In this document: in pieces, positions 37,989 to 51,122 of the stretch
Layout: the number at the start of each line of letters is the position of its first letter
Position numbering within the stretch: position 1 is the stretch's first letter
DNA from: a virus
IMG/VR virus record: IMGVR_UViG_3300027816_000069
Location: 1 to 64,000 of that record
Direction: 5' to 3' (one strand)
DNA length: 64,000 nt
Program-made: the position numbers and the translations under genes
Notes under the pieces: model-generated
Databases searched by the model: none
What the model saw: only the letters and a program-made list of their open reading frames with translations
Told to the model about the DNA's origin: nothing

Positions 37989-37991
37989 TCG

Positions 37992-38007
37992 AGCAAACCG
38001 TGTGCCA
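37992..38007 (-). promoter_or_regulatory. sigma54-type -24/-12 site
   Basis: Minus strand TGGCAC-ACGGT-TTGCT. Confidence 0.55.
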
Positions 38008-38092
38008 AATAAAAATATTTTTTCCGTTGATTTTTTTTGATTGACAAGCCGATAATTCTGGTATAATCAAGGCATCACAAGGGAGAAAAGTT

Positions 38093-38287
38093 ATGCTTCA
38101 CGATTTTGATGATGTGAATCGGATTCTGGCTGAGATGACGAGCGAGAACATGATCGAACCCATCGACGAGAGCGATTGTCACCCGATGGACTGGGCCGAA
38201 GTGACCGGGGTGCTGGACGATGTGCAGGATGAAATTTATCCCGAGCCCATGCTTGACGAAAACGGTGTTCTGTGGTATGTTAGTTGA
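38093..38287 (+). CDS. small acidic protein
   Basis: GGGAG RBS after promoter at 38041. Confidence 0.7.
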   Translation: MLHDFDDVNRILAEMTSENMIEPIDESDCHPMDWAEVTGVLDDVQDEIYPEPMLDENGVLWYVS

Positions 38288-38300
38288 AAAGGAAAAAATA

Positions 38301-38552
38301 ATGAGCAAAGGTCATGATGAATTGGCCGAATATCTTTACAATAATAAAGAGGATACTGATATGTACTATCATGATGACACTACCGACCCTAACTATGATG
38401 ATCATGAGGATTTTTACAGTGATTCATTTGATGATGATATGGATGGCGATGTGGAAACTGGCCTCGCTTCCGCCGGATGGGGAACCGATGAGGACTACGG
38501 GTATTATGGTGATGATACCCCGATGAGCGACGATTACTATGGTGGAGAATAA
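38301..38552 (+). CDS. extremely acidic protein
   Basis: Asp/Tyr-rich, LASAGWGTDEDYG motif. Confidence 0.7.
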   Translation: MSKGHDELAEYLYNNKEDTDMYYHDDTTDPNYDDHEDFYSDSFDDDMDGDVETGLASAGWGTDEDYGYYGDDTPMSDDYYGGE

Positions 38553-38619
38553 TAACATGCCAAAGATTAGTGTTAAGGATTGGATTAAGTCTTATATGTC
38601 ACAACCAGAGGAAAAGAAA

Positions 38620-38853
38620 ATGATGAACGTTATCGTAACTCACACGGATACTTTTGGTGGAGAGGCTAATTATGGATGGGTGAAGCGTCACGAGTTTACT
38701 ATTCACAAGCATGCGTCACAGCGTAATATTACTCGAAAGGTTAAGGCTTTGGCCGGAATGACCGGTGTTAAGAGTGATACGTTTGATTATGATGTTGGTC
38801 TTACTATTAAGCCTAGGGGTTATAATCAAGTTATTTTCGTAGATTTTGAATAG
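38620..38853 (+). CDS. hypothetical early protein
   Basis: TDTFGGEANYGWV; GAGG RBS. Confidence 0.7.
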   Translation: MMNVIVTHTDTFGGEANYGWVKRHEFTIHKHASQRNITRKVKALAGMTGVKSDTFDYDVGLTIKPRGYNQVIFVDFE

Positions 38854-38865
38854 GAGGAACCCGAT

Positions 38866-38909
38866 CTGCCAAAATGGCAGGCGGGCCGGCCGATCTGCCA
38901 AAATGACAC
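38866..38909. repeat. 44-bp double-palindrome element 2
   Basis: Same layout, second arm CTGCCAAAATGACAC. Confidence 0.9.
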
Positions 38910-38980
38910 CCTAATTTTTTCTCTTGACTATTCAAGTTCGGCCTGTAGAATACCGATAACACTAGTAGGAGAAAAAGAAA

Positions 38981-39205
38981 ATGGTTGACGGATACCAGAA
39001 AATCTATAAGTTTGACAATGGTTTTGGGGCCAGTGTGGTTTCTCATAGTGGCTCATATGGAGGAAAAGAGGGTTTGTTTGAGATTGCTATTCTTGATAAG
39101 AATGATCAAATTAGTTATGATACCTTTATTACTGGTGATGTAATTGGATGGCTTGATTTTGCTGGCGTGGCCGATATTCTGGAAAGAATTAAGAATCTTG
39201 CTTGA
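38981..39205 (+). CDS. phage hypothetical protein
   Basis: YKFDNGFGASVV...GLFEIAIL; AGGAG RBS. Confidence 0.75.
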   Translation: MVDGYQKIYKFDNGFGASVVSHSGSYGGKEGLFEIAILDKNDQISYDTFITGDVIGWLDFAGVADILERIKNLA

Positions 39206-39257
39206 CAAGTGTCGATAAGTAGAGTAGACTTACACTATACCACTAAGGGAAAAGACA

Positions 39258-39575
39258 ATGAATCACGCCGAAGCAATTAAGATGGTTCGTGGCAAGAGGA
39301 ACGCTGATCGTCGCAAGGTTGGCAACAATACCTATGCTGAAATTCTGCCGAATGGTAGTGTGGGAATTATGCTTCACAGTACCTATGTTGTACAGATTCA
39401 TCCTGACAATACCTACACCCTCAATAGTGGGGGCTGGCAAACGCTAACCACTAAGGATAGAATTAACCAGTATAGCCCGCGTCGAGTGTACCAGCGGAAT
39501 TTTGAATGGTTCGTGAAGATTAACGATAAGGAATATCCTTTTATGGATGGGATGGTGGTGGGTTGTCCCACCTAA
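39258..39575 (+). CDS. phage hypothetical protein
   Basis: GGWQTLTTKDRIN; own promoter at 39202. Confidence 0.75.
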   Translation: MNHAEAIKMVRGKRNADRRKVGNNTYAEILPNGSVGIMLHSTYVVQIHPDNTYTLNSGGWQTLTTKDRINQYSPRRVYQRNFEWFVKINDKEYPFMDGMVVGCPT

Positions 39576-39610
39576 CCCTTCGGGTTCGGCTGGGGTGGCT
39601 GTAGTCAGCC
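39564..39610 (+). repeat. 47-bp motif copy 1
   Basis: TGT...GTAGTCAGC, gapless alignment to five other copies. Confidence 0.75.
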
Positions 39611-39892
39611 AAAAATACTAAAGTTTGAAACGTTGACAAGCCGATAGATAAAGGTAGAATGGTGCAGAAATGGAGGTTGTTATGGGTCATCTTGCTGGGC
39701 TTTTGATCTTGGTCATTTTTTGTGGGTTTATTGTGGGTATTATTGGGGTGGCTGCTGATCTTAATGATTGAATAAATAAAAGGAATTCAAGGATGAATTT
39801 TGACCCCTATAATTTTGTGTGTGGTTTTATTGTAGCCTTATTGTTGTGCTATAGTGTGGCCGATCTGGTTTTTTCCACTAAGGATAATAGTA

Positions 39893-40180
39893 ATGAAATT
39901 GACGACTAAGGAAATCGTTTTTCTTGCTTGCGTGTTTGTGGTTGGTTGTTTTTGTGCTTTTTATGCTAATACCAGCATTAAGCATGATACTCCCGCAGAG
40001 TTTTTGAACGAAAAGCCAATGGAGCCGCCGAAGGTAGAATTTGAACAGGAACCTAGTGGGGTTTCATATAATGATCCCGAATTGAAAATTGTTGAAGTTA
40101 TGTATACTAGTGAACAGGAAGGAATTCATACTGTTAAGGTGGCCTCATGCCGAGGATGTCACTGGAAATGCTGCCAATAA
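39893..40180 (+). CDS. membrane-anchored hypothetical protein
   Basis: Hydrophobic N-terminus; AAGGA RBS. Confidence 0.55.
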   Translation: MKLTTKEIVFLACVFVVGCFCAFYANTSIKHDTPAEFLNEKPMEPPKVEFEQEPSGVSYNDPELKIVEVMYTSEQEGIHTVKVASCRGCHWKCCQ

Positions 40181-40214
40181 GGCAGCTCGGCCGGCCAACA
40201 TGCCAAAATGGCAG
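40171..40214. repeat. 44-bp double-palindrome element 3
   Basis: CTGCCAATAAGGCAG-N14-ATGCCAAAATGGCAG. Confidence 0.9.
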
Positions 40215-40290
40215 TCAAAAAAATTTTTAAGTATTGCTTGACAACTGCCGATATCTAGTGTAGAATCAGCAAACACGAAAGGAAAAGAAC

Positions 40291-40530
40291 ATGACCTACA
40301 ACGGCTTCAAGAATTACGAAACGTGGAATGTTGTGCTGTGGATCAATAACGATGAGGGTCTGTATAATCTGGCTCGCCAGTGCGTATCCTATGATGAGTT
40401 TGTGGATTGTATGAAAGATTTGGGTGGTGAGATTGGATATCAAACGCCCGATGGTGTGGCTTGGAATGATTCTGGCATCGACCGTGAAAGCGTGAATCGG
40501 GATTGGGTTCAGGATTTTGTTGAAGTGTAG
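40291..40530 (+). CDS. phage hypothetical protein
   Basis: YNGFKNYETWNVVLWINNDE; promoter at 40238. Confidence 0.75.
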   Translation: MTYNGFKNYETWNVVLWINNDEGLYNLARQCVSYDEFVDCMKDLGGEIGYQTPDGVAWNDSGIDRESVNRDWVQDFVEV

Positions 40531-40592
40531 GCTTGACTTTTGACGATCATGGGTTAGACTATGGAAAAGGTTTTTCAAAACGAAAGGGTTTC

Positions 40593-41003
40593 ATGATGAA
40601 TGAAGTGATTATTGGTGCTATTGCTGCTGTGGTATTGGTTGCTGGTCTTCTGTCGTTTGCTGGTTTTCATGTGTATGGTGGCGTTAAGGATAGTCTGACC
40701 AATGCACGGGTTGGTCGAGTATACAACTTTGAGTATATTCAGCCCGTGACGGGTGATCCTGAGCGATTTATGGCTAAGGTGCTGGATGTTCATGAGTTTT
40801 CCGCTGATTATCTGGCTAGACTGAATGCGGTGAGTAGGTATCGTAGGTATGATCCTAACTTTGAGCGTAGCCGCCATATGGTGACGGCCCAAACGCCAGA
40901 TGGTAAGATTAGGAACTTTTACGCTGAACGCACCCGCAATGTTCGTCGGCCACTCCTTGGTGGGGTAGCCTTCCGAACAGGGCTGGCTGAACTGCTGTCC
41001 TGA
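40593..41003 (+). CDS. membrane-anchored hypothetical protein
   Basis: N-terminal TM segment; promoter at 40533. Confidence 0.7.
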   Translation: MMNEVIIGAIAAVVLVAGLLSFAGFHVYGGVKDSLTNARVGRVYNFEYIQPVTGDPERFMAKVLDVHEFSADYLARLNAVSRYRRYDPNFERSRHMVTAQTPDGKIRNFYAERTRNVRRPLLGGVAFRTGLAELLS

Positions 41004-41019
41004 AAAGATGTTCCATCGC

Positions 41020-41051
41020 AAGCCCGTCCTAGGAAACCCCTAGGGCGGGCT
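41020..41051 (+). terminator. strong hairpin after 40593 gene
   Basis: AGCCCGTCCTAGG/CCTAGGGCGGGCT; no clear U-tract. Confidence 0.5.
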
Positions 41052-41061
41052 GATGGAGTTT

Positions 41062-41105
41062 CTGCCAAAACGGCAGGCGGGCCGGCCGATCTGCCATAAT
41101 GGCAG
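41062..41105. repeat. 44-bp double-palindrome element 4
   Basis: CTGCCAAAACGGCAG-N14-CTGCCATAATGGCAG. Confidence 0.95.
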
Positions 41106-41235
41106 GAAATTTCTTGTGGATTTTGTCTCTTGACAAGCCGATACTAGAGTGTAGAATGATAGAGTCACCAACAAAAATCCGATTCATTCGGTGTTATACG
41201 CTTGACAAGTCGAGAACGTATGCTATATTGGTGAC

Positions 41236-41828
41236 ACAAACTTTCGTGGGTCCATGCGGCGGGACTAGATTGGGATAACCTATTTCGATAAACTTTCTCT
41301 GAAAGACTGGGGGAGTTGCCAACGGGGTTATACGTTGGATAGAAGTACCAATCTATGGGGGATGGCGTCCTCACCACGACCAATACTTTATGGGTGACGG
41401 TTTTCCGTATGACGAGGCAAAGCACAGCGGAGCGAAGGGGAGTTACCGGTGACGAACCTTCCACGCGGCCTCCCAAACTGCGAAAGCAGGAGTAGAAATA
41501 GGTGACACCCATAAACAATATTATGGTTCCTAGATAATAGGTTAGGATTAAAAACGTTCGCCCTTCCCATCCTTTGTGATAGGCTAAAAACGTTGCCATA
41601 TACAATACAACCAGTAACCGTTTCTAAGAGCCAGACCAAATAGGGTTATATGCGCAATACCACCTTATTTGCAGGGAGGATTTCCGTGGACGGTTTTCAT
41701 AGAATCGGGGCGTAAAAGATTCGCTGGTTACAAATCTGCTGATAGTTTCCCTTAGATAAGGTAAAACCTTGAGGTTGAACGGATCAGTACCGAGAGGCTG
41801 TTCGTAAAACTATCGGCGGTCGGTACTT
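41236..41828 (+). ncRNA. candidate large structured non-coding RNA (~590 nt)
   Basis: No plus-strand ORF; promoter TTGACA-N16-TATATT at 41202; several 8-13 bp long-range helices, GAAA tetraloop, two pseudoknots. Confidence 0.7.
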
Positions 41829-41860
41829 GACTTGATGATAAAGAATGGTAGAATAGTTTT

Positions 41861-42061
41861 ATGAAAATCATACCAAAACAAAACGCACGAAAGTGGACAA
41901 AAGAACGGCTGAAACGTCATCCGGGTCTTTGGAAGGTTGAGCAGGATGCTAAGAGTGTTCCTTGCTGGCCGGGCGAAGATGCTATTTTGATGAAAAATTT
42001 GACTGATGGTTGGAGTGGCTGGTTTCCGATAAAAGATATTGACATAGCCGGTCAGGAATGA
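41861..42061 (+). CDS. hypothetical protein
   Basis: ATG right after promoter 41827-54 (near-leaderless). Confidence 0.6.
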   Translation: MKIIPKQNARKWTKERLKRHPGLWKVEQDAKSVPCWPGEDAILMKNLTDGWSGWFPIKDIDIAGQE

Positions 42062-42277
42062 TAGAATACTGAAATGACACTGCAAGAGTTTCTGGATGAG
42101 TTTCTTGATCCAAAGTTTCAAGAGATGATGAAGATTGTGGAAAAAGTCTTAGAGAAAAAAAATGAGAGTATTTCGTAAAATAATTCTGTTTTTCCCATCT
42201 TTAACCATGTTCTTTTTGGCATACTTTACTTTTATTTGTGATAACGAGGCTACTAAATTTAGTTTTAGGTGGAAATA

Positions 42278-42505
42278 ATGACCGTTAATGAACTTATTGA
42301 GATGTTGAAGAATTATCCGGGCGATATGAGGGTATTGACTCTTGGGTATGAGGGTGGGTATAATGATATTAGATTGGACAATAATGATATTGTATTTGAT
42401 GTCCAACGCGGTGAAGGGGCTTGGTATTATGGGCCTCATGAGTGCGTGGAGTTTACAGATGAGAAAACTGGTACAAAGTGCTTAATTATTGCTAGGACGA
42501 AATGA
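42278..42505 (+). CDS. phage hypothetical protein
   Basis: MTVNELIEMLKNYPGDMRV...GYEGG. Confidence 0.7.
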   Translation: MTVNELIEMLKNYPGDMRVLTLGYEGGYNDIRLDNNDIVFDVQRGEGAWYYGPHECVEFTDEKTGTKCLIIARTK

Positions 42506-42565
42506 ACTGGCATTATGGACAACCTAATGTAATGAGATTGGTCTAAATCCTTATAAGAAATAACA

Positions 42566-42748
42566 ATGAAAACTGAAACTCTTGAACTGACTAAGACTGA
42601 ACTTGATTATCTTCTGAGTGTTGTTCATGAACATATTGACTCTGGTGTTTCATGGGGTAATTGGGGGGGTAGTCATGCTCAGTTTGTAAAGATGCAAAAT
42701 AGAGTTTTGGAAAAGATTGAGGAAGCCAAAACTGGTAGTGTGTCCTAA
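42566..42748 (+). CDS. hypothetical protein
   Basis: 60-aa ORF co-oriented with neighbours. Confidence 0.6.
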   Translation: MKTETLELTKTELDYLLSVVHEHIDSGVSWGNWGGSHAQFVKMQNRVLEKIEEAKTGSVS

Positions 42749-42793
42749 AAATGGTTCTATTATGCCAGAGTATTATCTGCAAAAGGAATAGGT

Positions 42794-43033
42794 ATGGAAT
42801 GGATTAGTTTTTTTGATCGTCAACCAGAAGACGGGCAAAAGATTTGGTATTATGGAAAATATATTGGTGTGTGGGTTGGTATATACCATTATTCTCCAAA
42901 TGATCCTGTAAGTCCTCATATTATTTTATGCGACGAGGCTCCCGGCGTTGTGGATCGTATGGATGCCCCGTATTGGCAACCTTACAGACCAGCAAAACCA
43001 GAGAAAGATTACCCAAAGGATTATCCATCATGA
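42794..43033 (+). CDS. DUF551-like small protein
   Basis: MEWISFFDRQPEDGQ...PYWQP. Confidence 0.65.
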   Translation: MEWISFFDRQPEDGQKIWYYGKYIGVWVGIYHYSPNDPVSPHIILCDEAPGVVDRMDAPYWQPYRPAKPEKDYPKDYPS

Positions 43034-43203
43034 TTGACAATAAAGATAAGGCGTTGATTTATGTGATTAACTTTTTTAACTCTCGTATGAGTGCCATGAA
43101 TAAGAATAATATAGAGAGAACTAAAGAATTAATCTCTACTCATAAAATTAGTGCTAGTGAACTTGTGGATAAGTATGTGAAATTAGTATATGAAAACTCT
43201 TAG
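43030..43203 (+). CDS. hypothetical protein
   Basis: ATGA overlap with previous stop. Confidence 0.55.
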   Translation: MIDNKDKALIYVINFFNSRMSAMNKNNIERTKELISTHKISASELVDKYVKLVYENS

Positions 43204-43315
43204 TGATATTTGTCCATGTGGCGCTTGTGATGTGCTAGTATGGAAATATGATGATAATGGTTTAATCTGGTTATTTTGCCAGCAATGCCACTGGTGGTAT
43301 ATCGGAAACGATTAA

Positions 43316-43359
43316 CCGCCAAAATGGCAGGCTGGCCGGCCGATCTGCCAAAATGGCAT
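43316..43359. repeat. 44-bp double-palindrome element 5
   Basis: CCGCCAAAATGGCAG-N14-CTGCCAAAATGGCAT. Confidence 0.9.
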
Positions 43360-43424
43360 TCTTTTTTTCTTAAGAATACTCTTGACAGACGCCGATCATA
43401 GGAGTATACTTAATACACAACCAT

Positions 43425-43507
43425 GCCGCTGTGGTGGAATTGGCATACACATGACACTTAAAATGTCACGCCTTATAGGCTTGCGAGTTCAAGTCTCGCC
43501 AGCGGTA
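43425..43507 (+). tRNA. tRNA-Leu(TAA)
   Basis: GCCGCTG/CAGCGGT acceptor, TGACA-CTTAAAA-TGTCA anticodon arm, long variable arm. Confidence 0.9.
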
Positions 43508-43567
43508 TTCTTTTTAGTCCGAATTGTAAACGCTCTATATAGTAGACACCAAAGCGTTTGAAATATT

Positions 43568-43614
43568 TGTTTTTCCCAATCCTTCGGATTTGGCTGGTGT
43601 GGCTGTAGTCAGCG
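43568..43614 (+). repeat. 47-bp motif copy 2
   Basis: Gapless match. Confidence 0.75.
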
Positions 43615-43690
43615 AAAGTTTAAAGGTCTTGACAAGGTTTGGTCGATAAGGTATAATAGAAACAACAAGACGCATAACTAAAGCGAAATA

Positions 43691-43775
43691 CCCCGATGTT
43701 CCACACGACTGACTGTAAATCAGTTGACATATTATGTGTGGCGGCTGTCAAGTGGTTCAACTCCTCCATCGGGGA
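43691..43775 (+). tRNA. non-canonical tRNA-Tyr(GTA)-like RNA
   Basis: CCCCGATG/CATCGGGG acceptor, ACTGA-CTGTAAA-TCAGT anticodon arm, no D stem, weak T stem. Confidence 0.55.
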
Positions 43776-43819
43776 TTAAAGGTCTTGACAAGCACTAGCC
43801 GATAAGATATACTACAAGC

Positions 43820-44233
43820 ATGAAACAGAAACCACTACATGCCGAAGTTCGATTCCATCTTGGTAAAGGTCAGTTTTTTAAGCATTGGCAAATCAAGATT
43901 GTACAAGGAAAAGAGAAGGTTGATGTTTACTATTGTGATCCTGCCTATTATCAATTAGAGATGATTGGGTGCAAATTAATCAATAAGGTTAATCAGGCTA
44001 AAAAGGTTCATGAGGCTGGCGTTAAGGATGTTACGGGGTGGGTTGAGTGTAGGGATGTTAGAATAAATAATGAAGTAGGGGTTGACAATCTTGAGAAATT
44101 ATACTACAATCCGTTGAGAGATCCGCACTGGCGTCGTGAAAGCGACAATAACGAGTTCATTTGGGATAATAGTGAATACGCTACTCTACTAACTAACGGC
44201 AAACAAGTTTATATTTTGGAAGAAAGGGTTTGA
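43820..44233 (+). CDS. hypothetical protein
   Basis: 137 aa, ATG just after promoter ~43784. Confidence 0.7.
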   Translation: MKQKPLHAEVRFHLGKGQFFKHWQIKIVQGKEKVDVYYCDPAYYQLEMIGCKLINKVNQAKKVHEAGVKDVTGWVECRDVRINNEVGVDNLEKLYYNPLRDPHWRRESDNNEFIWDNSEYATLLTNGKQVYILEERV

Positions 44234-44235
44234 AT

Positions 44236-44607
44236 ATGATCAAGTTGGAACTGACGGTTCGTGAGGCTATGAATCTGGCGACGAACTGCCACCTCGATAT
44301 CTATGAGCGGATTGTGGCCGCTTTTGAGGTTGCGTTGGGTGTGAACCAGCACAGGATGGTTACTATCACCGCTGGCATGACTCTTGATAACCGTGTTCCT
44401 TGTATCAAGGCTATCCGACTCCACGCCGGCTGGGGTTTTAAGGAGGCAAAGGAGTGGACGGATTTTCTGGTTGGCGGCTGGAAGTACGACAAGTGGCATC
44501 CTGCTTCTCCCAACGCCAAGCAGAGCATCACCCTCAAGACTCCGGAAGCGGCCGAGAATCTGCTGCGTGATCTGACCACTTTGGGTTGTGAGGGTTTTCT
44601 CTCATGA
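44236..44607 (+). CDS. ribosomal protein bL12 C-terminal-domain-like protein
   Basis: RVPCIKAIRLHAGWGFKEAKEWTD resembles the L7/L12 KxxxIKxVRxxTGLGLKEAKxxV motif. Confidence 0.65.
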   Translation: MIKLELTVREAMNLATNCHLDIYERIVAAFEVALGVNQHRMVTITAGMTLDNRVPCIKAIRLHAGWGFKEAKEWTDFLVGGWKYDKWHPASPNAKQSITLKTPEAAENLLRDLTTLGCEGFLS

Positions 44608-44619
44608 TCCAAACCCTGT

Positions 44620-44663
44620 CTGCCAAAATGGCAGCGGGGCCGGGCGATCTGCCAAAATGACAG
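44620..44663. repeat. 44-bp double-palindrome element 6
   Basis: CTGCCAAAATGGCAG-N14-CTGCCAAAATGACAG. Confidence 0.95.
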
Positions 44664-44846
44664 CATAAAAAATTCATGTATGATACTTGACAATGCCGAT
44701 GCTTAGTGTAGAATGATGTTATCACGAGACAAGACGCTGGTTGACTGCAACACAAAAAAGTTCAACCCAGCACTTGACAAGTGACGATAAGTGATGTATG
44801 ATTCGTTTATTGGTGGTTGATAACTCTTTTGGGAAAGGTTTTTACT

Positions 44847-45104
44847 ATGCGTACTTATGATTTTGCGGTTGCTGTTGCGTCGGACACTCTTGATACGGAA
44901 GTGGTTGAGGATACGATTCGTCAGGCTCTTGCCGATGGTCTGCCCGATGGTACTCTTGTGGTGGTCAAGGCCCAGGGTATCAAGGACTATAGCGAGCAGG
45001 GCTGGAAGGTTGCCCGTAATCGCAAGTTCGGTGTGAGTGTCAAGGAAGCCGGTGACGGTCACAAGGCTAAGACTACTAAGGTTGAGGCGGAGACTGTTGG
45101 CTGA
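44847..45104 (+). CDS. hypothetical protein
   Basis: MRTYDFAVAV..., two tandem upstream promoters. Confidence 0.7.
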   Translation: MRTYDFAVAVASDTLDTEVVEDTIRQALADGLPDGTLVVVKAQGIKDYSEQGWKVARNRKFGVSVKEAGDGHKAKTTKVEAETVG

Positions 45105-45170
45105 ACACGGTTCGGGAGTTATAATGTCCGATAGACCGCTGGTGGACGCACTGGCGGCTATCGGTATTTC

Positions 45171-45242
45171 GGCCCCATAGTTAAAAGGATATAACACGGG
45201 ATTTCTAATCCTGTATTAGAGGTTCGATTCCTCTTGGGGCTA
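45171..45242 (+). tRNA. tRNA-Arg(TCT)
   Basis: Cloverleaf, CGGGA-TTTCTAA-TCCTG. Confidence 0.9.
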
Positions 45243-45246
45243 TTTA

Positions 45247-45320
45247 GGGAGCGTAGATCAATCGGTTAGATCGCCAGCCTGTCACGCTGGAGGTTGCGGG
45301 TTCGAGTCCCGTCGCTCTCG
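45247..45320 (+). tRNA. tRNA-Asp(GTC)
   Basis: Cloverleaf, CCAGC-CTGTCAC-GCTGG. Confidence 0.92.
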
Positions 45321-45323
45321 CTT

Positions 45324-45367
45324 CTGCCAAAATGGCAGGCTCCGCGGCCGAACTGCCAAAATGGCAG
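45324..45367. repeat. 44-bp double-palindrome element 7
   Basis: Two perfect 15-mers, 14-nt spacer. Confidence 0.95.
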
Positions 45368-45441
45368 TTAAAATTTTGTGGATTCTTTCTCTTGACAAGC
45401 CGATAACGTAGTGTAGAATCACTAGCACAAGGGAGATAACC

Positions 45442-46146
45442 ATGAAAACTGCTGATGGTAACGACAAGTTGGGTAAGGGTTGCATTGTGGTTTCGCGTCC
45501 TGTTGGCGACACTTGCCCGTCAACGTGCGACTTTCTCAATAATGGCTGCTATGCCGAAGCCACCGAGAATCAGTATAAGAACGCTCGCACCGCGGGCTTT
45601 GCTAATGTTATTACCGAAAAGCATAAGATTCGTGCTATGATTCTTGATGCTATCAAGCGTAATAAAAGCATCCGCTGGCATGAGCGTGGCGATTGGTTTC
45701 TCAACGGCGAACTTGATACCAACTATGTTGAGAATGTAACGTGGGCGTGTGAGAGTGTTCTGGCCGATGGTATTAGTCTGCCTAATATGTGGTTTTATAC
45801 TCATATCTACGATAGTCGGCTTGTTGTACTGGAAAAGTATATGGCCGTCTATGCTAGTATTCATAATGCAGAAGATAGGGCTGCTGCGGTGTCTGCCGGT
45901 TTTAAGTTGTTTGCGTGGTGCGATAGTGATACTAAGATTGCTCCCAAGCGTCCAAAGAGTAAGGCCAAGGCCGATGCGTGGCGTAAGGCTTTGCCTAAAC
46001 TGGTAATTATCGAAGATGTCAAGTATGTTGTTTGCCCCGAGATTCGTCGTGGTCGATCAGTTATTACTTGTACTGGTACTAAGGATAGTATTAGTTGTGA
46101 TATGTGCGTCAAGGGTTTGGCTAACGTACTATTTCCTGCCCACTAA
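45442..46146 (+). CDS. Cys-motif protein, gp88-like
   Basis: TCPSTC...GCYA, IRWHERGDW, WFYTH, C-terminal CPE...C...CDMC. Confidence 0.55.
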   Translation: MKTADGNDKLGKGCIVVSRPVGDTCPSTCDFLNNGCYAEATENQYKNARTAGFANVITEKHKIRAMILDAIKRNKSIRWHERGDWFLNGELDTNYVENVTWACESVLADGISLPNMWFYTHIYDSRLVVLEKYMAVYASIHNAEDRAAAVSAGFKLFAWCDSDTKIAPKRPKSKAKADAWRKALPKLVIIEDVKYVVCPEIRRGRSVITCTGTKDSISCDMCVKGLANVLFPAH

Positions 46147-46158
46147 AAGGATATAACA

Positions 46159-46401
46159 ATGGCTAAGTATTATGTTAATAGTGGTACGCTTCAAGTGATT
46201 ATGGACCATAGTGATCCTCTTGAGGCTGGAGTGGCCGGATTCCTAATGACTAACAAGATGGATACAATAGATGAGTATTTTTATATTGATGAGCGTGGTT
46301 TTCGTGATTATGTCAGTGCTGATAATGGTACTAACGTAATTCCTACTTCTAGCATTATTCGTGCCGCCGAATCCGAATTGACGGATGACACTCTGCCATA
46401 A
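46159..46401 (+). CDS. hypothetical protein
   Basis: AAGGA RBS. Confidence 0.7.
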   Translation: MAKYYVNSGTLQVIMDHSDPLEAGVAGFLMTNKMDTIDEYFYIDERGFRDYVSADNGTNVIPTSSIIRAAESELTDDTLP

Positions 46402-46436
46402 TGGCAGGGCGGCCGGGCGATCTGCCAAAACGGCAG
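46393..46436. repeat. 44-bp double-palindrome element 8
   Basis: CTGCCATAATGGCAG-N14-CTGCCAAAACGGCAG. Confidence 0.95.
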
Positions 46437-46501
46437 TTAAGTTTCTGGTACGATTGGCCGATAATTCTTTCATGGACAAGGGTTTGACAAGGAGGGTTAA
46501 T

Positions 46502-46864
46502 ATGCTACAATGGATTGGCGTTGCGTTGACTGCTGCTGCTTTGGTGTATACGGGTGTTAAGGATTATCAAAAAGGGGATATAAAAATTCCTCCCCTAAAT
46601 AAAAATTTGACAACTCCTAAGTATCCTGTACAATATTGTTTAATGGCGTATGACCCTAACCTAGATAGGATTTTTTACCTTCACGAAAACGGACAATGGT
46701 ATGATCATCCCCCACAACAACGACGATATGCGGCCACGTCGCAAGTACAACAGTATCAAAATCAAAACCAAGCAGCGGTGGGAACTTCCTACGGGTCACA
46801 GGGAGGAGCGGTATACGGTTATGGACAATCGGCCCAAGCGTCAACGTACCCGCAGCGATATTGA
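46502..46864 (+). CDS. membrane-anchored hypothetical protein with Gln/Tyr-rich tail
   Basis: AGGAGG RBS, N-terminal hydrophobic helix. Confidence 0.5.
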   Translation: MLQWIGVALTAAALVYTGVKDYQKGDIKIPPLNKNLTTPKYPVQYCLMAYDPNLDRIFYLHENGQWYDHPPQQRRYAATSQVQQYQNQNQAAVGTSYGSQGGAVYGYGQSAQASTYPQRY

Positions 46865-46895
46865 CAGGAAGTGGCGTAAGGAGTATGATATATAG
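46728..46895 (+). CDS. small Arg/Lys-rich protein
   Basis: MRPRRKY...DNRPKRQRTR; overlaps previous ORF in another frame. Confidence 0.5.
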   Translation: MRPRRKYNSIKIKTKQRWELPTGHREERYTVMDNRPKRQRTRSDIDRKWRKEYDI

Positions 46896-46976
46896 GTTAT
46901 TCTTGGTTTGAGTCATGACAAATCGAGAAGATAGTTTATGAGGGTATTCTATCTTTAAATAAAAACTATCCTCTTT

Positions 46977-47049
46977 GCCGGTATAACTCAGTTAGCAGAG
47001 TGTCAAATTTGTAATTTGAATGTCGTGGGTGCAAATCCTACTACCGGCT
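46977..47049 (+). tRNA. tRNA-Thr(TGT)
   Basis: Cloverleaf; atypical T-loop TGCAAAT. Confidence 0.85.
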
Positions 47050-47082
47050 CTAGGAATTGAAATAAAAAACGGTGAATAATGC

Positions 47083-47155
47083 TGCCCGGTAGCTTAACTG
47101 GTAAAGCTGTTGACTTTGGATCAACTGAGTCTAGGTTCGAATCCTAGCCGGGCAT
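47083..47155 (+). tRNA. tRNA-Gln(TTG)
   Basis: Cloverleaf, GTTGA-CTTTGGA-TCAAC. Confidence 0.92.
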
Positions 47156-47164
47156 ATGATTTAT

Positions 47165-47236
47165 ACACGGGTAGCATAATGGTAATGCCCCAAACTGTTA
47201 ATTTGTCAGATGTAGGTTCGAATCCTACCCCGTGTG
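47165..47236 (+). tRNA. tRNA-Asn(GTT)
   Basis: Cloverleaf, one anticodon-stem mismatch. Confidence 0.85.
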
Positions 47237-47245
47237 CTTAGTTTG

Positions 47246-47316
47246 ATTGGCGTAGTTCAACGGTAGAACGACGGTCTCCAAAACCGTAGATGGGGGTTCG
47301 ATTCCCTCCGCCTTTG
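47246..47316 (+). tRNA. tRNA-Trp(CCA)
   Basis: ACGGT-CTCCAAA-ACCGT; two T-T mismatches in acceptor stem. Confidence 0.75.
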
Positions 47317-47318
47317 TT

Positions 47319-47405
47319 GGAATCTTGGCCGAGTGGTTTAAGGCAGCGGTTTACTAAGCCGCCGAGGGTTAAAATCCTCCACAGGTTCGAATCCTGTAGA
47401 TTCCG
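47319..47405 (+). tRNA. tRNA-Ser(ACT)
   Basis: GGAATCT/AGATTCC, GCGGT-TTACTAA-GCCGC, long variable arm, G73. Confidence 0.88.
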
Positions 47406-47407
47406 TT

Positions 47408-47487
47408 GGTGGATTTCCAGAGCGGCAAATGGGCCTGACTGTAGATCAGGTGCTTCGGCTTCGGGGGTTCGAGTCCCTCATCCACCA
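47408..47487 (+). tRNA. tRNA-Tyr(GTA)
   Basis: Canonical cloverleaf, CCTGA-CTGTAGA-TCAGG. Confidence 0.92.
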
Positions 47488-47537
47488 CTAAACTTTTACT
47501 TGACAACGGTCGATAACAAGGTATAATCCCACAACAC

Positions 47538-47613
47538 GGGGCGTAAGGTAAGCCGGTTGCATCCGTCACTCTTATAAGGTGATCTTAGGTACGTTCGACT
47601 CGTACACGCCCTA
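47538..47613 (+). tRNA. tRNA-Ile(TAT)
   Basis: GGGGCGT/ACGCCCT, TCACT-CTTATAA-GGTGA, A73. Confidence 0.8.
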
Positions 47614-47652
47614 CTTATATGTTTCGGAGGCTGACGTTTGAGTTGCGAGTGT

Positions 47653-47725
47653 GGCCCTATCGTCTAACGGTTTAGGACTTCGGATTTTCGTTCCGAATAT
47701 CGGGGTTCGAATCCCCGTAGGGTCA
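47653..47725 (+). tRNA. tRNA-Glu(TTC)
   Basis: Cloverleaf, TCGGA-TTTTCGT-TCCGA. Confidence 0.9.
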
Positions 47726-47766
47726 CTTGACAAAACAATCTGGCGAGGTACAATAAGGCTAAATAC

Positions 47767-47839
47767 GGGTCATTAGCTCAATTGGCAGAGCAGCATCCTT
47801 TTAAGTTGTAGGTTGTAGGTTCGAGTCCTACATGACCCA
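47767..47839 (+). tRNA. tRNA-Lys(TTT)
   Basis: Cloverleaf, one anticodon-stem mismatch. Confidence 0.87.
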
Positions 47840-47887
47840 TTGACAGCGGACGGTGTTTGGTGTATAATGCGATTAAAGGAGAGTTTT

Positions 47888-48046
47888 ATGTTTCATGGCG
47901 AGTATGAGAATTATGAAGATATTGTAAAAGACTCAGACGAACTCTTTTCGTATGATGATGACCACAGTTATGAAACTAATCTCTACGATGAAAGAGAATG
48001 GGACAATTACTATCATATTTTGGCCGATGAAATAGTGGAAGAATAA
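47888..48046 (+). CDS. small acidic protein
   Basis: AAGGAG RBS, promoter at 47840; stop TAA overlaps the cassette-array junction. Confidence 0.7.
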   Translation: MFHGEYENYEDIVKDSDELFSYDDDHSYETNLYDEREWDNYYHILADEIVEE

Positions 48047-48134
48047 CACTCAGGACCAGGAGCGGCTCGCAGCCGCAGGAGGACGACATGATTTCAGACG
48101 TTGACGCGAGTCCGCTGCATCGTCTTGGTTCGCA
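48041..48134 (-). repeat. attC site A (degenerate)
   Basis: Plus strand GAATAAC...GAGCGGCTCGC...GCGAGTCCGCTGCATCGTCTTGGTTCGCA. Confidence 0.65.
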
Positions 48135-48459
48135 GAAGCAAAGGGGTAGCGAAATGCCGGTGTCTTGGAAGTTGGTAGAGAACTGCTCTGGTAAGGTTTT
48201 GCGGCGGTCAAAGAACCGCGTATTTGTTGCGGGCTGGCGTCGCGTCATTGGGGCAACGGTTGTGCCGGCGTGCATTCTCCCGTCAGTGGGCCAGCACGTG
48301 CGGTTCGGTTCTTTCGATTGGGAGGTAGTGCGTGTTGAGCAAGTTGAGTGCGACTACGACCCTTCTTATCTGTACCGCGTCGATCTTGTGATCCGCGACG
48401 AGAGCGGAAAGCCAGTAAACTTCGCGAGCGGAATATCAAACCTCTGCCTTGACGGCTGA
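48088..48459 (+). CDS. cassette 1 hypothetical protein
   Basis: AGGAGG+ATG inside attC A (alternative ATG 48154); TGA inside the TGAGAAC core. Confidence 0.65.
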   Translation: MISDVDASPLHRLGSQKQRGSEMPVSWKLVENCSGKVLRRSKNRVFVAGWRRVIGATVVPACILPSVGQHVRFGSFDWEVVRVEQVECDYDPSYLYRVDLVIRDESGKPVNFASGISNLCLDG

Positions 48460-48505
48460 GAACGCCAGCGATCAGCGGCTCGTCCGCTGCGTCGCGTGGT
48501 TATGG
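48457..48505 (-). repeat. attC site B (49 bp)
   Basis: Minus strand AAC-CACGC-GAC(G)CAGCGG(A)CGAG-CCGCTGATC-GCTGGC-GTT. Confidence 0.8.
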
Positions 48506-48515
48506 AGACACACAC

Positions 48516-48683
48516 ATGACAATCACTCAAATAATCGGCGTTGCACTGACCTCATCCCCATTTGCGGGCGTTGCGGTGTTGTGCCACATGCACGGCGGCT
48601 GGCCCGCCGTTGCTGTAGTGTTTGGGGCGACCGGAGCCGTTGTTGCTGTTATCGCACTTGGGTGCCGACTTCTGGTTACATAA
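48516..48683 (+). CDS. cassette 2 small membrane protein (55 aa)
   Basis: GGAG RBS; MTITQIIGVALTSSPFAGVAVL...GAVVAVIALGCRLLVT; TAA inside the ACATAAC core; not in ORF track. Confidence 0.7.
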   Translation: MTITQIIGVALTSSPFAGVAVLCHMHGGWPAVAVVFGATGAVVAVIALGCRLLVT

Positions 48684-48766
48684 CGGCTGCGATCAGCGGC
48701 ATCGAACACAGGAGCGACCATGACGAAAGAGGTAGATGAGATGTCCGCTGCATCGCGTGGTTCTGC
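48678..48766 (-). repeat. attC site C (89 bp)
   Basis: Same arms as B with a longer central loop containing AGGAG...ATG. Confidence 0.8.
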
Positions 48767-49019
48767 GGTGATGGCCTACGCCGTGATTGACGACGAGGGC
48801 GTGCAGCACTCGCTGTGGTTTCTGGAAAAGGACGCGACGAGCGAGGCCGCGATGGTCGGTGGGACTGTGGTGCGGCTTGGCCACCCCACGCTCACCGACG
48901 AGGAGCGGGAGGCGTTGGAGTACGGCATTAGGCAAGCCGACGAATACGACAGAGTAGGGCTTGAAGACGCAAAGCGCGCCGCAATTGTGTTTCGCGGCCT
49001 GCTGGAACGACTAGGCTGA
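48720..49019 (+). CDS. cassette 3 protein (LTDEEREA family)
   Basis: Starts in attC C loop, stop in TGAGAAC. Confidence 0.7.
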   Translation: MTKEVDEMSAASRGSAVMAYAVIDDEGVQHSLWFLEKDATSEAAMVGGTVVRLGHPTLTDEEREALEYGIRQADEYDRVGLEDAKRAAIVFRGLLERLG

Positions 49020-49066
49020 GAACGCTTGCGATCTGCGGCGCAGTCCGCAGCATCGCGTGGTTCTCA
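49017..49066 (-). repeat. attC site D (50 bp)
   Basis: Compensatory change CTGCGG/CCGCAG versus CAGCGG/CCGCTG in B and C. Confidence 0.8.
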
Positions 49067-49083
49067 CAGGCATGGAGACAGAC

Positions 49084-49311
49084 ATGAGGCCGACACCAAT
49101 CGGACGGTTTGCTGACACGCCCTCATACGAGGAGTTGCAGCGAGAGGTTGCCCGCCTGCGGCTCACCGACGAGGAGCGGGAGGCGATTGAGCGGCTGTGC
49201 GAGGCCGCCAATGACATAATCTACGATGACAGGACGGCCGGTGGAAGCCACTGGCAAGAGGACGAGGCGGCGGTTGCTGTGGCTCGCGGCCTGCTGGAGC
49301 GGACGAAGTGA
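49084..49311 (+). CDS. cassette 4 protein (LTDEEREA family)
   Basis: GGAG RBS; stop in GTGAGAAC. Confidence 0.7.
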   Translation: MRPTPIGRFADTPSYEELQREVARLRLTDEEREAIERLCEAANDIIYDDRTAGGSHWQEDEAAVAVARGLLERTK

Positions 49312-49416
49312 GAACTCTTCTTCACGGATGCAACTTGGTGGGACAAGTATCTATTATAGGCAACTAGCCTTTCTTATTCCTTTCTTATACGTTCGAATCG
49401 TATCATCCGTGCTGTT

Positions 49417-49908
49417 ATGAATATACTACATCAGAAACTAGAAGATCATCGAGTTACTCCAGACGGCCAATATATTAAGGGTTGTAGCCATACTACAAAA
49501 GTGCTAAATCATAAGCACAGAAATTCTATAATCATAAAGGCCATTTGTGATTTGCGTAAGATAACTGATGAGTTTGATAGTATAGCCTGCTGTGGTATTA
49601 GTGGTTTGATGGTTGTTCCACAAATTGCTGAACTGCTGAATAAACATATTATTGTTATTCGTAAGAAAAACGAGGAATGTTATTCAAATTTTTTTATGGA
49701 AGGTGTTACTCCTTGGAGGTACATAATAATTGACGACCTTATTTGTTCTGGCAATACTTTTAGGCATATCACAAGCACTATCTCAAATGACTACCGCAAG
49801 GCTCAGTGTGTAGGACTCTATTGCTATATGCCAGAAGAATGTTCATATAATAAAGATAATATTAAAGAATTTGAACGAAGATTCCGTACTCAACTATTAA
49901 ACGTCTAA
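49417..49908 (+). CDS. type I phosphoribosyltransferase-like protein
   Basis: PRPP-binding loop YIIIDDLICSGNT. Confidence 0.75.
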   Translation: MNILHQKLEDHRVTPDGQYIKGCSHTTKVLNHKHRNSIIIKAICDLRKITDEFDSIACCGISGLMVVPQIAELLNKHIIVIRKKNEECYSNFFMEGVTPWRYIIIDDLICSGNTFRHITSTISNDYRKAQCVGLYCYMPEECSYNKDNIKEFERRFRTQLLNV

Positions 49909-49925
49909 AAGGGGGTCCGCATATC

Positions 49926-49969
49926 CTGCCAAAACGGCAGGGCGGCCGGCCGATCTGCCAAAATGGCAG
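49926..49969. repeat. 44-bp double-palindrome element 9
   Basis: CTGCCAAAACGGCAG-N14-CTGCCAAAATGGCAG. Confidence 0.95.
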
Positions 49970-50063
49970 AAAAAATTTCCTCAATTCTGGCTGTTGACAA
50001 GACGATATCATAGTGTAGAATCAGTGCATCGGAACGAAGAACGCTATCACGAAAGGGTTGACA

Positions 50064-51011
50064 ATGCCTGCTGCTGTTGAAAAGATGATGTTTGTTGGTG
50101 CTACGCCTTGGCACGGTCTGGGCAATCAGTTGGATGAGGCTCCGTCGATTGGCGAGGCGATTACCGCTGCTGGTTTGGATTGGGAAGTTGGATTGAAGGA
50201 CTTGCAGACTGTGGACGGTGTGCCGGTGTCGCATCGTGCAACGTACCGCAAGACTGATGGTAGCATCCTTGGAGTTGTGGGTCCGCGATATACTCCGCTC
50301 CAGAATCAGGATGCGTTTGATTGGTTCCAGCCTTTTCTGGATGCTGGCGAGTGCAATCTGCATACCGCCGGTTCGCTCCATAGTGGTCAAAAGGTTTGGG
50401 TGCTTGCTCAACTCAACCGCGACAATAGCGAAATTGTCAAGGGTGATGAGGTCTGCAAGTTTATTCTGCTGAGTAATAGTCACGATGGAACAACGGCTAT
50501 TCGTGTCGGATATACCCCGATCCGCGTGGTCTGCGTGAATACGCTGGCTGCTGCTCATCACAACAAGGCTAGCAAACTGATTCGGATTCGTCACACTCGC
50601 TCCAGCAAAAATAATCTGGATAATGTGCGTGATATTATGGACAATATCAACGCTGAGTTTGAGGCTACTGCCGATCAGTTCCGGTTTCTTGCTAGCAAGA
50701 GTTTCAACCAGAATGATGTTCGTCGATATGTCAAGACGGTGCTGGGCATCGAAGGTACGCCGGATGGCGATATCAAGACTCGCACCCGGAATATCATGGA
50801 CGAAATTCTTGCACTAATCGAAGGTCCGAAGCAGAGTGCTGCTGGGGTTCGTGGAACTTACTGGGCCGCTTATAACGGTTACAATGAGTACCTGAATTAT
50901 AACAAGGGTCGCACGACCGATAATCGGCTCGACTCTCTCTGGTTCGGTCAAAATGCTAATGATAATCTCAAGGCACTGAATGTGGCTATGGAGTTTGCTA
51001 ACGCGGTCTGA
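50064..51011 (+). CDS. DUF932/TIGR03299-family phage-plasmid protein
   Basis: TPWHGLG, AGLDWEV, TAGSL, NSHDG, TPIRVVCVNTL, GTYWAAYN motifs. Confidence 0.85.
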   Translation: MPAAVEKMMFVGATPWHGLGNQLDEAPSIGEAITAAGLDWEVGLKDLQTVDGVPVSHRATYRKTDGSILGVVGPRYTPLQNQDAFDWFQPFLDAGECNLHTAGSLHSGQKVWVLAQLNRDNSEIVKGDEVCKFILLSNSHDGTTAIRVGYTPIRVVCVNTLAAAHHNKASKLIRIRHTRSSKNNLDNVRDIMDNINAEFEATADQFRFLASKSFNQNDVRRYVKTVLGIEGTPDGDIKTRTRNIMDEILALIEGPKQSAAGVRGTYWAAYNGYNEYLNYNKGRTTDNRLDSLWFGQNANDNLKALNVAMEFANAV

Positions 51012-51036
51012 TTCTTCCTTTCGTGGCGTGATCGAA

Positions 51037-51069
51037 GCCGCCGTAGGGGCAACCCTGCGGCGGTTTTTT
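51037..51069 (+). terminator. intrinsic terminator
   Basis: GCCGCCGTAGGG-GCAA-CCCTGCGGCGG followed by T7. Confidence 0.85.
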
Positions 51070-51078
51070 GTCAATAGG

Positions 51079-51122
51079 CTGCCAAAATGGCAGGGCGGCC
51101 GGCCGGAATGCCAAAATGGCAG
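51079..51122. repeat. 44-bp double-palindrome element 10
   Basis: CTGCCAAAATGGCAG-N14-ATGCCAAAATGGCAG. Confidence 0.92.

Follow-up and report, generated by a model that had tools for sequence, protein, structure and literature searches.

A probable array of inverted integron cassettes inserted in the genome of a freshwater phage

A 64,000-nt stretch of viral DNA (hereafter the window, meaning the whole stretch) forms the first 64 kb of the 122,350-nt IMG/VR record IMGVR_UViG_3300027816_000069, for which CheckV gave a completeness of 88%. Between genes of the phage backbone, it carries a 1268-nt island (48047..49314, + strand) of four small genes and four sites resembling attC, the recombination site of integron gene cassettes. 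A first-pass annotation had taken these genes to be cassettes that read outward from their own attC. The locus raised the question of what such an island is, how it came to lie in a phage, which gene belongs to which site, and where translation of the genes would begin. Our analysis indicated that the island is probably a CALIN-type array (cluster of attC sites lacking integron integrases) composed of integron cassettes of a Planctomycetota attC family, with their genes inverted, in a lytic-looking freshwater phage.

Four cassettes inserted between phage genes

Each gene was preceded by an attC-like site, and genes and sites were all annotated on the + strand. Site A, a long site of 86 nt, extends from AAC 48045-47 to GTT 48128-30; its left arm is decayed, its right arm matches the arm pattern with three mismatches, and its loop reads AGGAGGACGACATG, with AGGAGG and ATG 48088. 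An intact counterpart was found in another viral contig, L046 (88% identity over 77 nt). Site B is a short hairpin of 41 nt with the arm repeats (AAC 48461-63 to GTT 48499-501), and site C is a long type-I hairpin of 81 nt (AAC 48682-84 to GTT 48760-62) whose loop reads AGGAGCGACCATG, with AGGAGCGACC and ATG 48720. The best folder was site D, a short hairpin of 42 nt (AAC 49021-23 to GTT 49060-62; -17.3 kcal/mol, z -3.08, one of 200 shuffles as good), with an AAC/GTT stem, an internal loop of 4 nt opposite 3 nt, and one unpaired C on the 3' arm; sites B and C had the same architecture. The array closes with a bare AAC core (49313..49315, + strand, within TGAGAAC 49309-15), which is its right junction with the backbone. 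The terminal GTGAGAAC is the exact complement of GTTCTCAC of site D, and no hairpin follows it.

The open reading frame (ORF) of cassette 1 (48088..48459) encodes 123 aa from ATG 48088 or 101 aa from 48154 and stops at TGA 48457-59. Cassette 2 (48516..48683; stop TAA 48681-83) encodes a hydrophobic protein of 55 aa behind its own ribosome-binding site (RBS), GGAGA. Cassette 3 (48720..49019; stop TGA 49017-19) encodes 99 aa from a start in the loop of site C, and cassette 4 (49072..49311; stop TGA 49309-11) encodes 79 aa, or 75 aa from ATG 49084. Re-reading of the coordinates bore out the earlier description of four ORFs on the + strand, each with its stop in a heptamer ending in AAC. No Pfam or PHROG family was found above cut-off for the four proteins. 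Cassettes 3 and 4 are paralogues that share the motifs LTDEEREA.. and ..RGLLER.. (48877-48920 and 49148-49191). In metagenome contigs, bins holding these motifs reached a summed depth of up to 2630 in run X9, against ca. 45 in the flanks, which indicated a small protein family very common in the same waters. Many upstream ORFs of viral arrays terminate in LLERLG* or LLERTK*.

An attC is an imperfect hairpin between an inverse core ending in AAC and a core beginning with GTT; a spacer and one extra base stay unpaired, and the loop is variable (PMC5371416). The sites of the window had the core-bounded hairpin, the spacer, the extra base and loops of 5 to ca. 45 nt. The arm repeats occurred in the window in four right-arm and three left-arm copies; the arm 18-mer gave three matches where shuffles predicted 0.04, and the whole 122-kb record held four arm matches at up to three mismatches, compared with none for the reversed pattern. 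Searches with PF00589 and TIGR02249 gave no match in this record, hence no IntI and no tyrosine recombinase was found in it. Four attC-like sites, recognized here by regular expression and pattern, in a phage record in which no integrase was found were read as a CALIN. The array was not adjoined by intI, attI and the Pc promoter, as in a complete integron, but lay between phage genes at a non-att site.

The insertion was demonstrated by composition and by relatives. GC content was 0.57-0.64 inside the island and 0.33-0.43 in its flanks, the phage at large having ca. 35-45%. Relatives without the island were fetched through the adjoining phosphoribosyltransferase-like gene (49417..49908), giving 80 viral loci, and hairpin arms were present in none of the 80. 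In L257, L258 and L265, the stop of a small phage ORF was joined directly to the sequence that follows 49315 in the window (..TTCTTC..ACGGATGCNACTTGGTGGGACAAGT..), and this empty site located the island between TAA|C and TCTTCTTC. AAC was the sole sequence common to both island junctions.

The same arrangement was recovered from independent sequencing. At least 92% of the sampled words of 47850-49450 were present in 20 sequencing runs of 12 studies, dated 2017-2025 and labelled as freshwater or lake metagenomes, except for two fungus metagenomes. Contigs of runs X2, X3, X8 and X9, from four studies, spanned 47850-48490 and 49159-49450 without one differing letter. An assembly chimera, in which GC-rich DNA had been misjoined to the contig of an AT-rich phage, would suit the sharp GC step and the breaking of Logan contigs at the hairpins; however, both junctions were bridged without difference in four studies and the stretch was held by 20 runs, and the chimera was thereby ruled out as far as such data allow, keeping a next to negligible probability. 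Joints seen in the metagenomes, such as 48481 to 48743, with short sides of ca. 20 nt, were taken as other hairpins of the same metagenomes and not as excision products.

The hairpin family was not confined to this phage. The viral sample was defined by the exact right-arm 18-mer in IMG/VR and comprised at least 119 stretches; most of the hairpin-carrying contigs had a GC content of 60-68%. Sites were found by regular expression, and a looser expression gave 293 sites in the stretches listed, up to 11 per locus and all co-oriented within a locus; for 65 of the 293 right arms a left arm could not be detected, and left-arm analyses were run on the others. The sites fell into three classes: short, type I long (loop ..CAGGAGCNACCATG..) and type II long, which has an additional stem (CCCGCGA..TCGCGGG).

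Each window cassette had relatives elsewhere: cassette 1, behind short hairpins, in L029 (92% over 125 nt) and in L034 (80% over 184 nt); cassette 2 in L033 and L085, other large phage contigs (90.7% identity over 247 nt); cassette 3 in L015, L092, L095 and L096 (87-98% identity), always behind type-I hairpins; and cassette 4 in L117 (79% over 348 nt). As these relatives occurred in different arrays, the cassettes move as separate units. Compared with L029 and L034, whose 5' leader is likewise open in the GGT-TCT frame, cassette 1 misses 33 nt between two TAG(T/C)GA(G/A)ATGCC repeats (48126-48160), a deficit that removes 11 codons including the CxxC-like PCPKCG.

The ends of the cassettes supported the same modularity. 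The two pentamers that flank one ORF, following GTT on one side and preceding the next AAC on the other, were complementary at a mean of 4.15 of 5 positions and perfectly so in 72 of 130 cases (near-identical phages remained in this count), whereas the two flanks within one hairpin scored 2.42 of 5, against 2.46 for random pairs. Each ORF of the viral arrays thus bears its own 8-nt terminal inverted repeat, scored at 7/8, 7/8, 6/8 and 8/8 for the four window cassettes. Hall and co-workers reportedly described this crossover-point logic, in which the bases beyond the cores are complementary across the cassette and not within a hairpin of the array. Complementarity across the ORF and not within the hairpin pointed to a circular cassette with one site, whose two cores come to flank the gene. 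A miniature inverted-repeat transposable element or an IS200-type hairpin transposon was ruled out, as flanks within a hairpin were no more complementary than chance.

Polarity of the cassettes and calibration on bacterial integrons

A typical integron cassette gene reads from the attI side toward its own attC, and IntI recombines attC as folded single-stranded DNA with a preference for the bottom strand. The genes of the phage arrays did not follow this orientation and read away from their own attC, toward attI. The opposite polarity of attC and genes, as proposed in the first-pass annotation, was borne out by five independent and agreeing tests: the ends of the island, the ends of other arrays, the linkage of hairpin class to gene, the calibration on true integrons, and the position of the unpaired base.

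On its left the island begins with a complete hairpin, and on its right it ends with no more than a bare AAC. Across viral arrays, among the matches listed and with near-identical phages still counted, a bare 8-mer exactly complementary to the GTTnnnnn of the last hairpin was present in 40 of 74 arrays at a distance of up to 1.5 kb downstream (chance ca. 2%), and the mirror test upstream of the first hairpin was positive in 6 of 59, all six being diverged right arms missed by the regular expression. Six of the 40 terminal cores were followed by diverged hairpins and the remainder by a few recurrent non-hairpin anchor sequences. Hairpin class was kept in 44 of 55 de-duplicated pairs that shared the downstream ORF and not the upstream one, and in 11 of 24 pairs that shared the upstream ORF and not the downstream one, with a chance expectation of 0.33 in both. 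On folding, the single unpaired stem base lay on the 3' arm of the gene-sense strand. Because these results agreed, the cassette unit is the hairpin with the gene downstream of it, with crossover at AA|C on the gene-sense strand, which supports the reading that the gene-sense strand corresponds to the attC bottom strand and that the genes are inverted relative to ordinary cassettes.

The coding strand of the phage arrays was judged by Pfam hits on both strands, in place of stop-free length and GC3-GC1. Three of the ten longest '+' ORFs from distinct loci had Pfam hits (C5 methylase, 2e-45; N6_N4 methylase, 2e-21; DUF551), compared with none of ten '-' ORFs, and a stop triplet lay within 12 nt of AAC in 123 of 129 viral intervals.

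Sequences following the terminal AAC were of several recurrent kinds. These AT-richer anchors, found in, for example, L018, L029, L041, L026 and L003, read CAGTGTTTMT..CGCATAA.., CATGTAATTGACCCCG.., AAGTATTCGGCGGCATCTTCGCCGCC.. and TTGT.ATT.TC..GTATAGC. The last of these resembles the attI-side sequence beside the IntI of a bacterial contig, L225 (19 of 26 nt between L029 and L225, counted by eye). The anchors may be attI-like capture sites retained by phages that have no integrase. A narrow repeat motif in at least two copies was seen in 2 of 34 non-hairpin anchors and 0 of 200 controls, too weak a result to claim attI-like direct repeats.

Integrons are on record in Planctomycetota, as passages of one report state (PMC8618304), and those that carry this site family served as calibration. 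Contig L225 (7.6 kb, from a metagenome-assembled genome of Planctomycetaceae) runs hairpin-ORF-hairpin-ORF-CCACAGAAC, continues with ca. 230 nt of non-hairpin sequence, and ends with the 3' end of IntI on the other strand (TIGR02249, 443.7 bits; cut-off 265). Its attI-proximal ORF, a DUF551 match (E 6e-12) on the '+' strand of the hairpins, reads toward attI and intI. A second genome, G447, has two IntI genes (426.9 and 419.1 bits) and '+' hairpins in the same relative position as in L225; there, the cassette closest to attI codes for a full-length DUF6883 protein (E 2.5e-31) on the opposite strand and so has the ordinary orientation. In both genomes, the site family stood next to IntI and an attI-like end. 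An intI that faces the array fits the "inverted integrase group".

Over 14 bacterial intervals, stop-free cover was 0.91 on the '-' strand and 0.59 on the '+' strand (12 of 14 vs 3 of 14 intervals), and an Rce1-like match lay on the '-' strand of a bacterial array; with 14 intervals and two family matches, this evidence on gene orientation is modest. The arm-gap-arm hairpin pattern was present in 42 of 401 Planctomycetota genomes and its reversed control in none. The 18-mer gave at least 120 matches in genome contigs; among the matches listed, L168, L197 and L225 had a real hairpin, L203, flagged by script, had several right-arm-like matches without a left arm, and the others were chance matches in GC-rich genomes. 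Another Planctomycetota locus, L351 (G357:C21:30000-40730), has at least 12 co-oriented hairpins in 8 kb up to the contig end, and the IntI of its genome is on a separate contig, C76.

The Planctomycetota integrons, which are of the sedentary chromosomal kind, share with the window an attC family of the form AAC-spacer-GCGATCAGCGG..CCGCTG-C-ATCGC-spacer-GTT, and with the phage arrays the cassette-specific core complementarity and the position of attI and intI relative to hairpin orientation. They differ in that their sites measure 50-59 nt and have a GGCCGAAGGCC loop with no RBS or ATG, and in that their genes, including the Rce1-like and DUF6883 genes, are mostly on the opposite strand, unlike those of the phage arrays. 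The window, unlike these integrons, has neither intI nor attI.

Candidate start codons inside the attC-like loop

In the two long sites of the window, an RBS and an ATG lie inside the loop (48088 and 48720), as the first-pass annotation had reported and the sequence confirmed, and both frames pass the core as GGT-TCN (..HRLGSQK.. and ..SRGSAVM.. in the translations), although the right arm of site A is one base longer (GCATCGTCTTGGTT vs GCATCGCGTGGTT). Compared with L046, the extra base of site A brings ATG 48088 in frame with cassette 1; the change is suggestive of an in-frame fusion, as a single case.

Frame statistics across the viral sites separated the long sites of type I from the short ones. 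The GGT-TNN frame was open for at least 50 codons at 39 of 41 type-I sites and 22 of 25 other long sites, as opposed to 35 of 99 short and 17 of 39 type-II sites. After de-duplication by downstream sequence, the figures for distinct downstream genes were 30/32, 21/24, 28/75 and 13/32, respectively; those of the short and type-II sites are near the one-third expected by chance. At 57 sites, an RBS-like GGA preceded an ATG, and the distance from this ATG to the end of the codon that follows GGT was exactly 45 nt. With RBS and ATG at this fixed distance, a gene behind a long site would be translated from inside the hairpin and would gain a leader of ca. 15 residues. The proteins downstream of long sites were diverse; some were methylase-like and one was HNH by motif. 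Entropies of 0.85/0.77/1.04 by codon position in the leader indicated a weak third-position excess of change, and what is kept in the long sites is the signal and the frame, not the peptide sequence of the leader.

The window cassettes differed in their dependence on the in-loop start. The sole start of cassette 3 with a Shine-Dalgarno sequence is the in-loop 48720, none being found before 48768/48771, and the predicted product from ATG 48720 would begin MTKEVDEMSAASR. A look at the homologs of cassette 3, as the first-pass annotation had advised, gave type-I hairpins upstream in all four other contexts (L015, L092, L095 and L096). The native start of cassette 1 is ATG 48154, preceded by an RBS of its own, AAGGGG; relatives with short hairpins start there as well, so the start at 48088 is optional. 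The earlier proposal, in which attC also starts translation and encodes the N-terminus, was supported by the frame comparison (30/32 vs 28/75 distinct genes) and has to be qualified for cassette 1. Use of 48088 and 48720 as starts is suggested by these sequence features.

Recombinase, alternatives and phage setting

The survey of hairpin-bearing virus records (L006, L057 and L074 lay outside it) recovered tyrosine recombinases of ca. 300 aa in 32 of 47 records and in 13 of the 14 that were at least 90% complete. They were mostly 6-44 kb from the array and within ca. 1.5 kb of it only in G004, G011 and G016, and a tblastn search of these phage recombinases against the IntI of L225 gave no match. 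A phage-encoded cassette recombinase was considered and, given this distance and the lack of a match, not preferred as the agent; these enzymes may be either phage integrases or cassette recombinases. One recombinase family of ca. 290-310 aa recurs in GC-rich hairpin phages: L242 (G015), L244 (G044), L246 (G012), L247 (G011) and L249 (G021).

Several observations weighed against a CALIN of inverted cassettes. The folding energies of sites B and C were non-significant (z -0.3 to -1.5), and site A, with its diverged left arm, did not fold as a single hairpin. The extrahelical base of an attC is usually G, and here it was C. With the record 88% complete, an integrase could be in the missing part, and access of the host of an AT-rich phage to an IntI of this type has to be assumed. 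The counts of core complementarity and array ends included near-identical phages, and stop-free length (0.88 vs 0.81) and GC3-GC1 failed to discriminate the coding strand in phage arrays. The leader peptide was barely constrained (47 peptides in 50 sequences). Linkage of hairpin to gene was also imperfect: hairpin class differed in 11 of 55 pairs with the same downstream gene; under a strict test (at least 90% interior identity), 37 of 66 pairs sharing the downstream gene differed inside the hairpin; and cassette 1 itself sits behind short hairpins in L029 and L034 and behind the long site A here. Some exchange would therefore occur in or near the right arm too, and breakpoints were visible in both arms. 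The identity-based linkage test was ambiguous and the class-based, de-duplicated test clearer. Two explanations offer themselves, occasional recombination of the other strand or homologous recombination between the near-identical arms.

One alternative involves no site-specific recombinase: the hairpins would be conserved regulatory stem-loops (terminators or processing sites), and the genes would be shuffled between phages by homology in the conserved arms of ca. 20 nt. Breakpoints in both arms fit this proposal, as do hairpin interiors that differ in 37/66 pairs with the same downstream gene and in 21/28 with the same upstream gene, the lack of an integrase found in this phage, and the distance of 6-44 kb between tyrosine recombinase and array in most hairpin phages. 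It leaves unexplained, however, the gene-specific 8-nt inverted repeats (72/130 perfect), the one-sided array ends, and the insertion at a site that shares AAC only; moreover, the same hairpins stand beside bona fide IntI with an attI-like end, and no T run follows sites A to D. We consider it unlikely. Cassettes of ordinary polarity, with the + strand as the attC top strand and each gene belonging to the hairpin after it, would be in keeping with stops inside RYYYAAC-like cores, which are typical of ordinary cassettes; the palindromic cores do not reveal the strand, and 11 of 24 pairs sharing the upstream gene keep the hairpin class. Yet the island has its full hairpin on the left and its bare AAC on the right, array ends gave 40/74 against 6/59, in the attI-proximal cassette of L225 the hairpin is separated from attI by a DUF551 ORF reading toward attI, and hairpin class is tied to the downstream gene in 44 of 55 pairs, all of which makes ordinary polarity highly improbable.

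Less easily set aside, though still doubtful, is the alternative that the cassettes are real and inverted while the in-loop ATGs are unused, with translation from 48154 and 48768/48771 and the open frame as a by-product. The RBS and ATG at 48154, used by the relatives in L029 and L034 behind short hairpins, speak for it, as does a gene beginning MNWMMPELP.., which has a type-I hairpin in front of it in L002, L067 and L116 and one of type II in L096 and L103. Conservation of the leader peptide is poor, and a start codon inside a stable hairpin may be poorly accessible. Against this stand the open frame of 30/32 distinct type-I genes compared with 28/75 for short sites, the RBS-like GGA and ATG at exactly -45 nt in 57 sites, and cassette 3, which has no Shine-Dalgarno sequence before 48768/48771 and type-I hairpins in all four of its other contexts.

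In the preferred explanation, a CALIN of inverted cassettes, each unit would have the layout C-hairpin-GTTnnnnn-ORF-nnnnnAA, in which the recombination site heads the gene rather than trailing it and the stop codon thereby falls within the core of the next junction. Short sites would leave translation to the gene's own RBS. A host IntI acting in trans would have inserted the four-cassette block into the phage, probably in an attG-type event; the target would have been a non-att GTT on the - strand, overlapping the stop codon with which the small ORF ends. The four genes would be transcribed by read-through from a phage promoter at 47840. Placed in a bacterial integron built in this way, such cassettes would point toward attI and intI, the reverse of the host's ordinary ones, and may well go unread when those are transcribed; no promoter was identified in the bacterial loci of this layout. 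A broader proposal, to which we give somewhat less than even weight, is that phages of freshwater bacteria share a large pool of their own, made of back-to-front cassettes in which attC now serves as a portable head of the gene. The mRNA-sense strand would be the bottom strand of attC, and the long attC forms would bring along an RBS, an ATG and a leader of 15 codons, set at a constant distance from the crossover. Any such cassette, delivered by a host integrase to an attI-like anchor or to an ordinary GTT within a phage operon, could be translated immediately, and the same cassette would be antisense and probably silent in the host's own integron. Phages would thus use the host integrase as a gene-exchange service, with anti-restriction methylases and small proteins of unknown function as the main cargo.

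Parts of this picture have precedents. Small accessory genes of large phages, bounded by repeated stem-loops and shuffled between genomes, also make up the PeSL (promoter early stem-loop) cassettes of T4-type phages; these carry promoters and, as has been proposed, act through homology, and they differ in that AAC/GTT cores, gene-specific inverted ends or a link to an integrase are not known from them. Passages of Qi et al. (2023; PMC9892861) report that IntI1 recombines phage-carried attC sites and that phage genomes hold CALINs. Like the island, those CALINs consist of attC-bounded single-gene cassettes, including in virulent phages, with no intI nearby, and they share DNA methylase cargo (seen here in the wider pool) and GTT-like boundary motifs. 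Section 3.4 of that paper describes the cassettes as co-directional, "most typical of bacterial arrays", and makes no mention of inverted genes or in-attC starts; the pool described here, with at least 119 viral contigs for one attC family, is far larger than the one in those passages.

Insertion of cassettes by IntI at genomic attG sites has been described (bioRxiv 10.1101/2022.09.11.507474); going by passages of that study, cassette DNA with its attC likewise enters a non-att site, and the island junctions share the GTT/AAC core only. That study concerned IntI1 and Escherichia coli chromosomes, whereas here a four-cassette block would have entered a phage genome by an IntI-like enzyme. ORF-11, ORF-17 and ORF-18 of the class 1 attI1 offer an example of a recombination site with a Shine-Dalgarno sequence and an ATG (passages of PMC8876359). 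There, as in the long phage sites, a short frame crosses the crossover point, and it aids translation of the adjacent cassette; the attI1 signal lies in attI, however, and serves the first cassette only, by translational coupling, whereas in the phages it lies in attC and is carried along by every cassette, with an in-frame fusion to the protein. A full-text literature search and the passages it returned gave neither a pool of cassettes in which inversion of the gene relative to attC is the rule nor an attC with an RBS, a start codon and an in-frame leader.

Integrons have been studied as bacterial devices, in which orientation toward the Pc promoter is the point of strand selection. If true, a phage pool of oppositely oriented cassettes would represent a second mode of the same recombination chemistry, with the site doubling as a translation start, and would offer integrase-less phages a route to gain or swap accessory genes, with anti-defence orphan methylases among the candidates. 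It would also connect the cassette pools of phages and hosts, and it opens the question of what strand choice in attC is for to direct tests on natural substrates. The four small genes of the window are best treated as acquired, and presumably expressed, accessory genes and not as part of the phage core.

The backbone around the island is that of a phage with no match to GenBank phages when 46900-50600 was searched by megablast. A run of 12 tRNA genes (43424-47839, + strand) lies upstream of the island, and the tRNA block is kept directly upstream of the empty site in relatives. Perfect or near-perfect TTGACA/TATAAT promoters occur between the last tRNA genes, at 47500, 47727 and 47840. The last, a sigma-70-type TTGACA-17-TATAAT (47840..47868, + strand), agrees with the consensus at 12 of 12 positions, and by this consensus match it would transcribe through the small ORF and the island. 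The small ORF (47888..48046, + strand) encodes an acidic backbone protein of 52 aa for which no Pfam or PHROG family was found; homologous ORFs are present in L257, L258 and L265, and its TAA stop overlaps the AAC of the left junction. PHROGs gave names to three of seven backbone proteins tried. The gene that adjoins the island on the right, on the + strand, encodes a phosphoribosyltransferase-like protein of 163 aa (phrog_2068, E 7e-14). A palindrome, CTGCCAAAATGGCAG, occurs in eleven pairs spaced 29 nt apart in intergenic gaps on the + strand of the window (37945-51122), with 22 matches at up to two mismatches compared with 0.29 expected; one pair, at 49926-49969, lies directly 3' of the gene adjoining the island.

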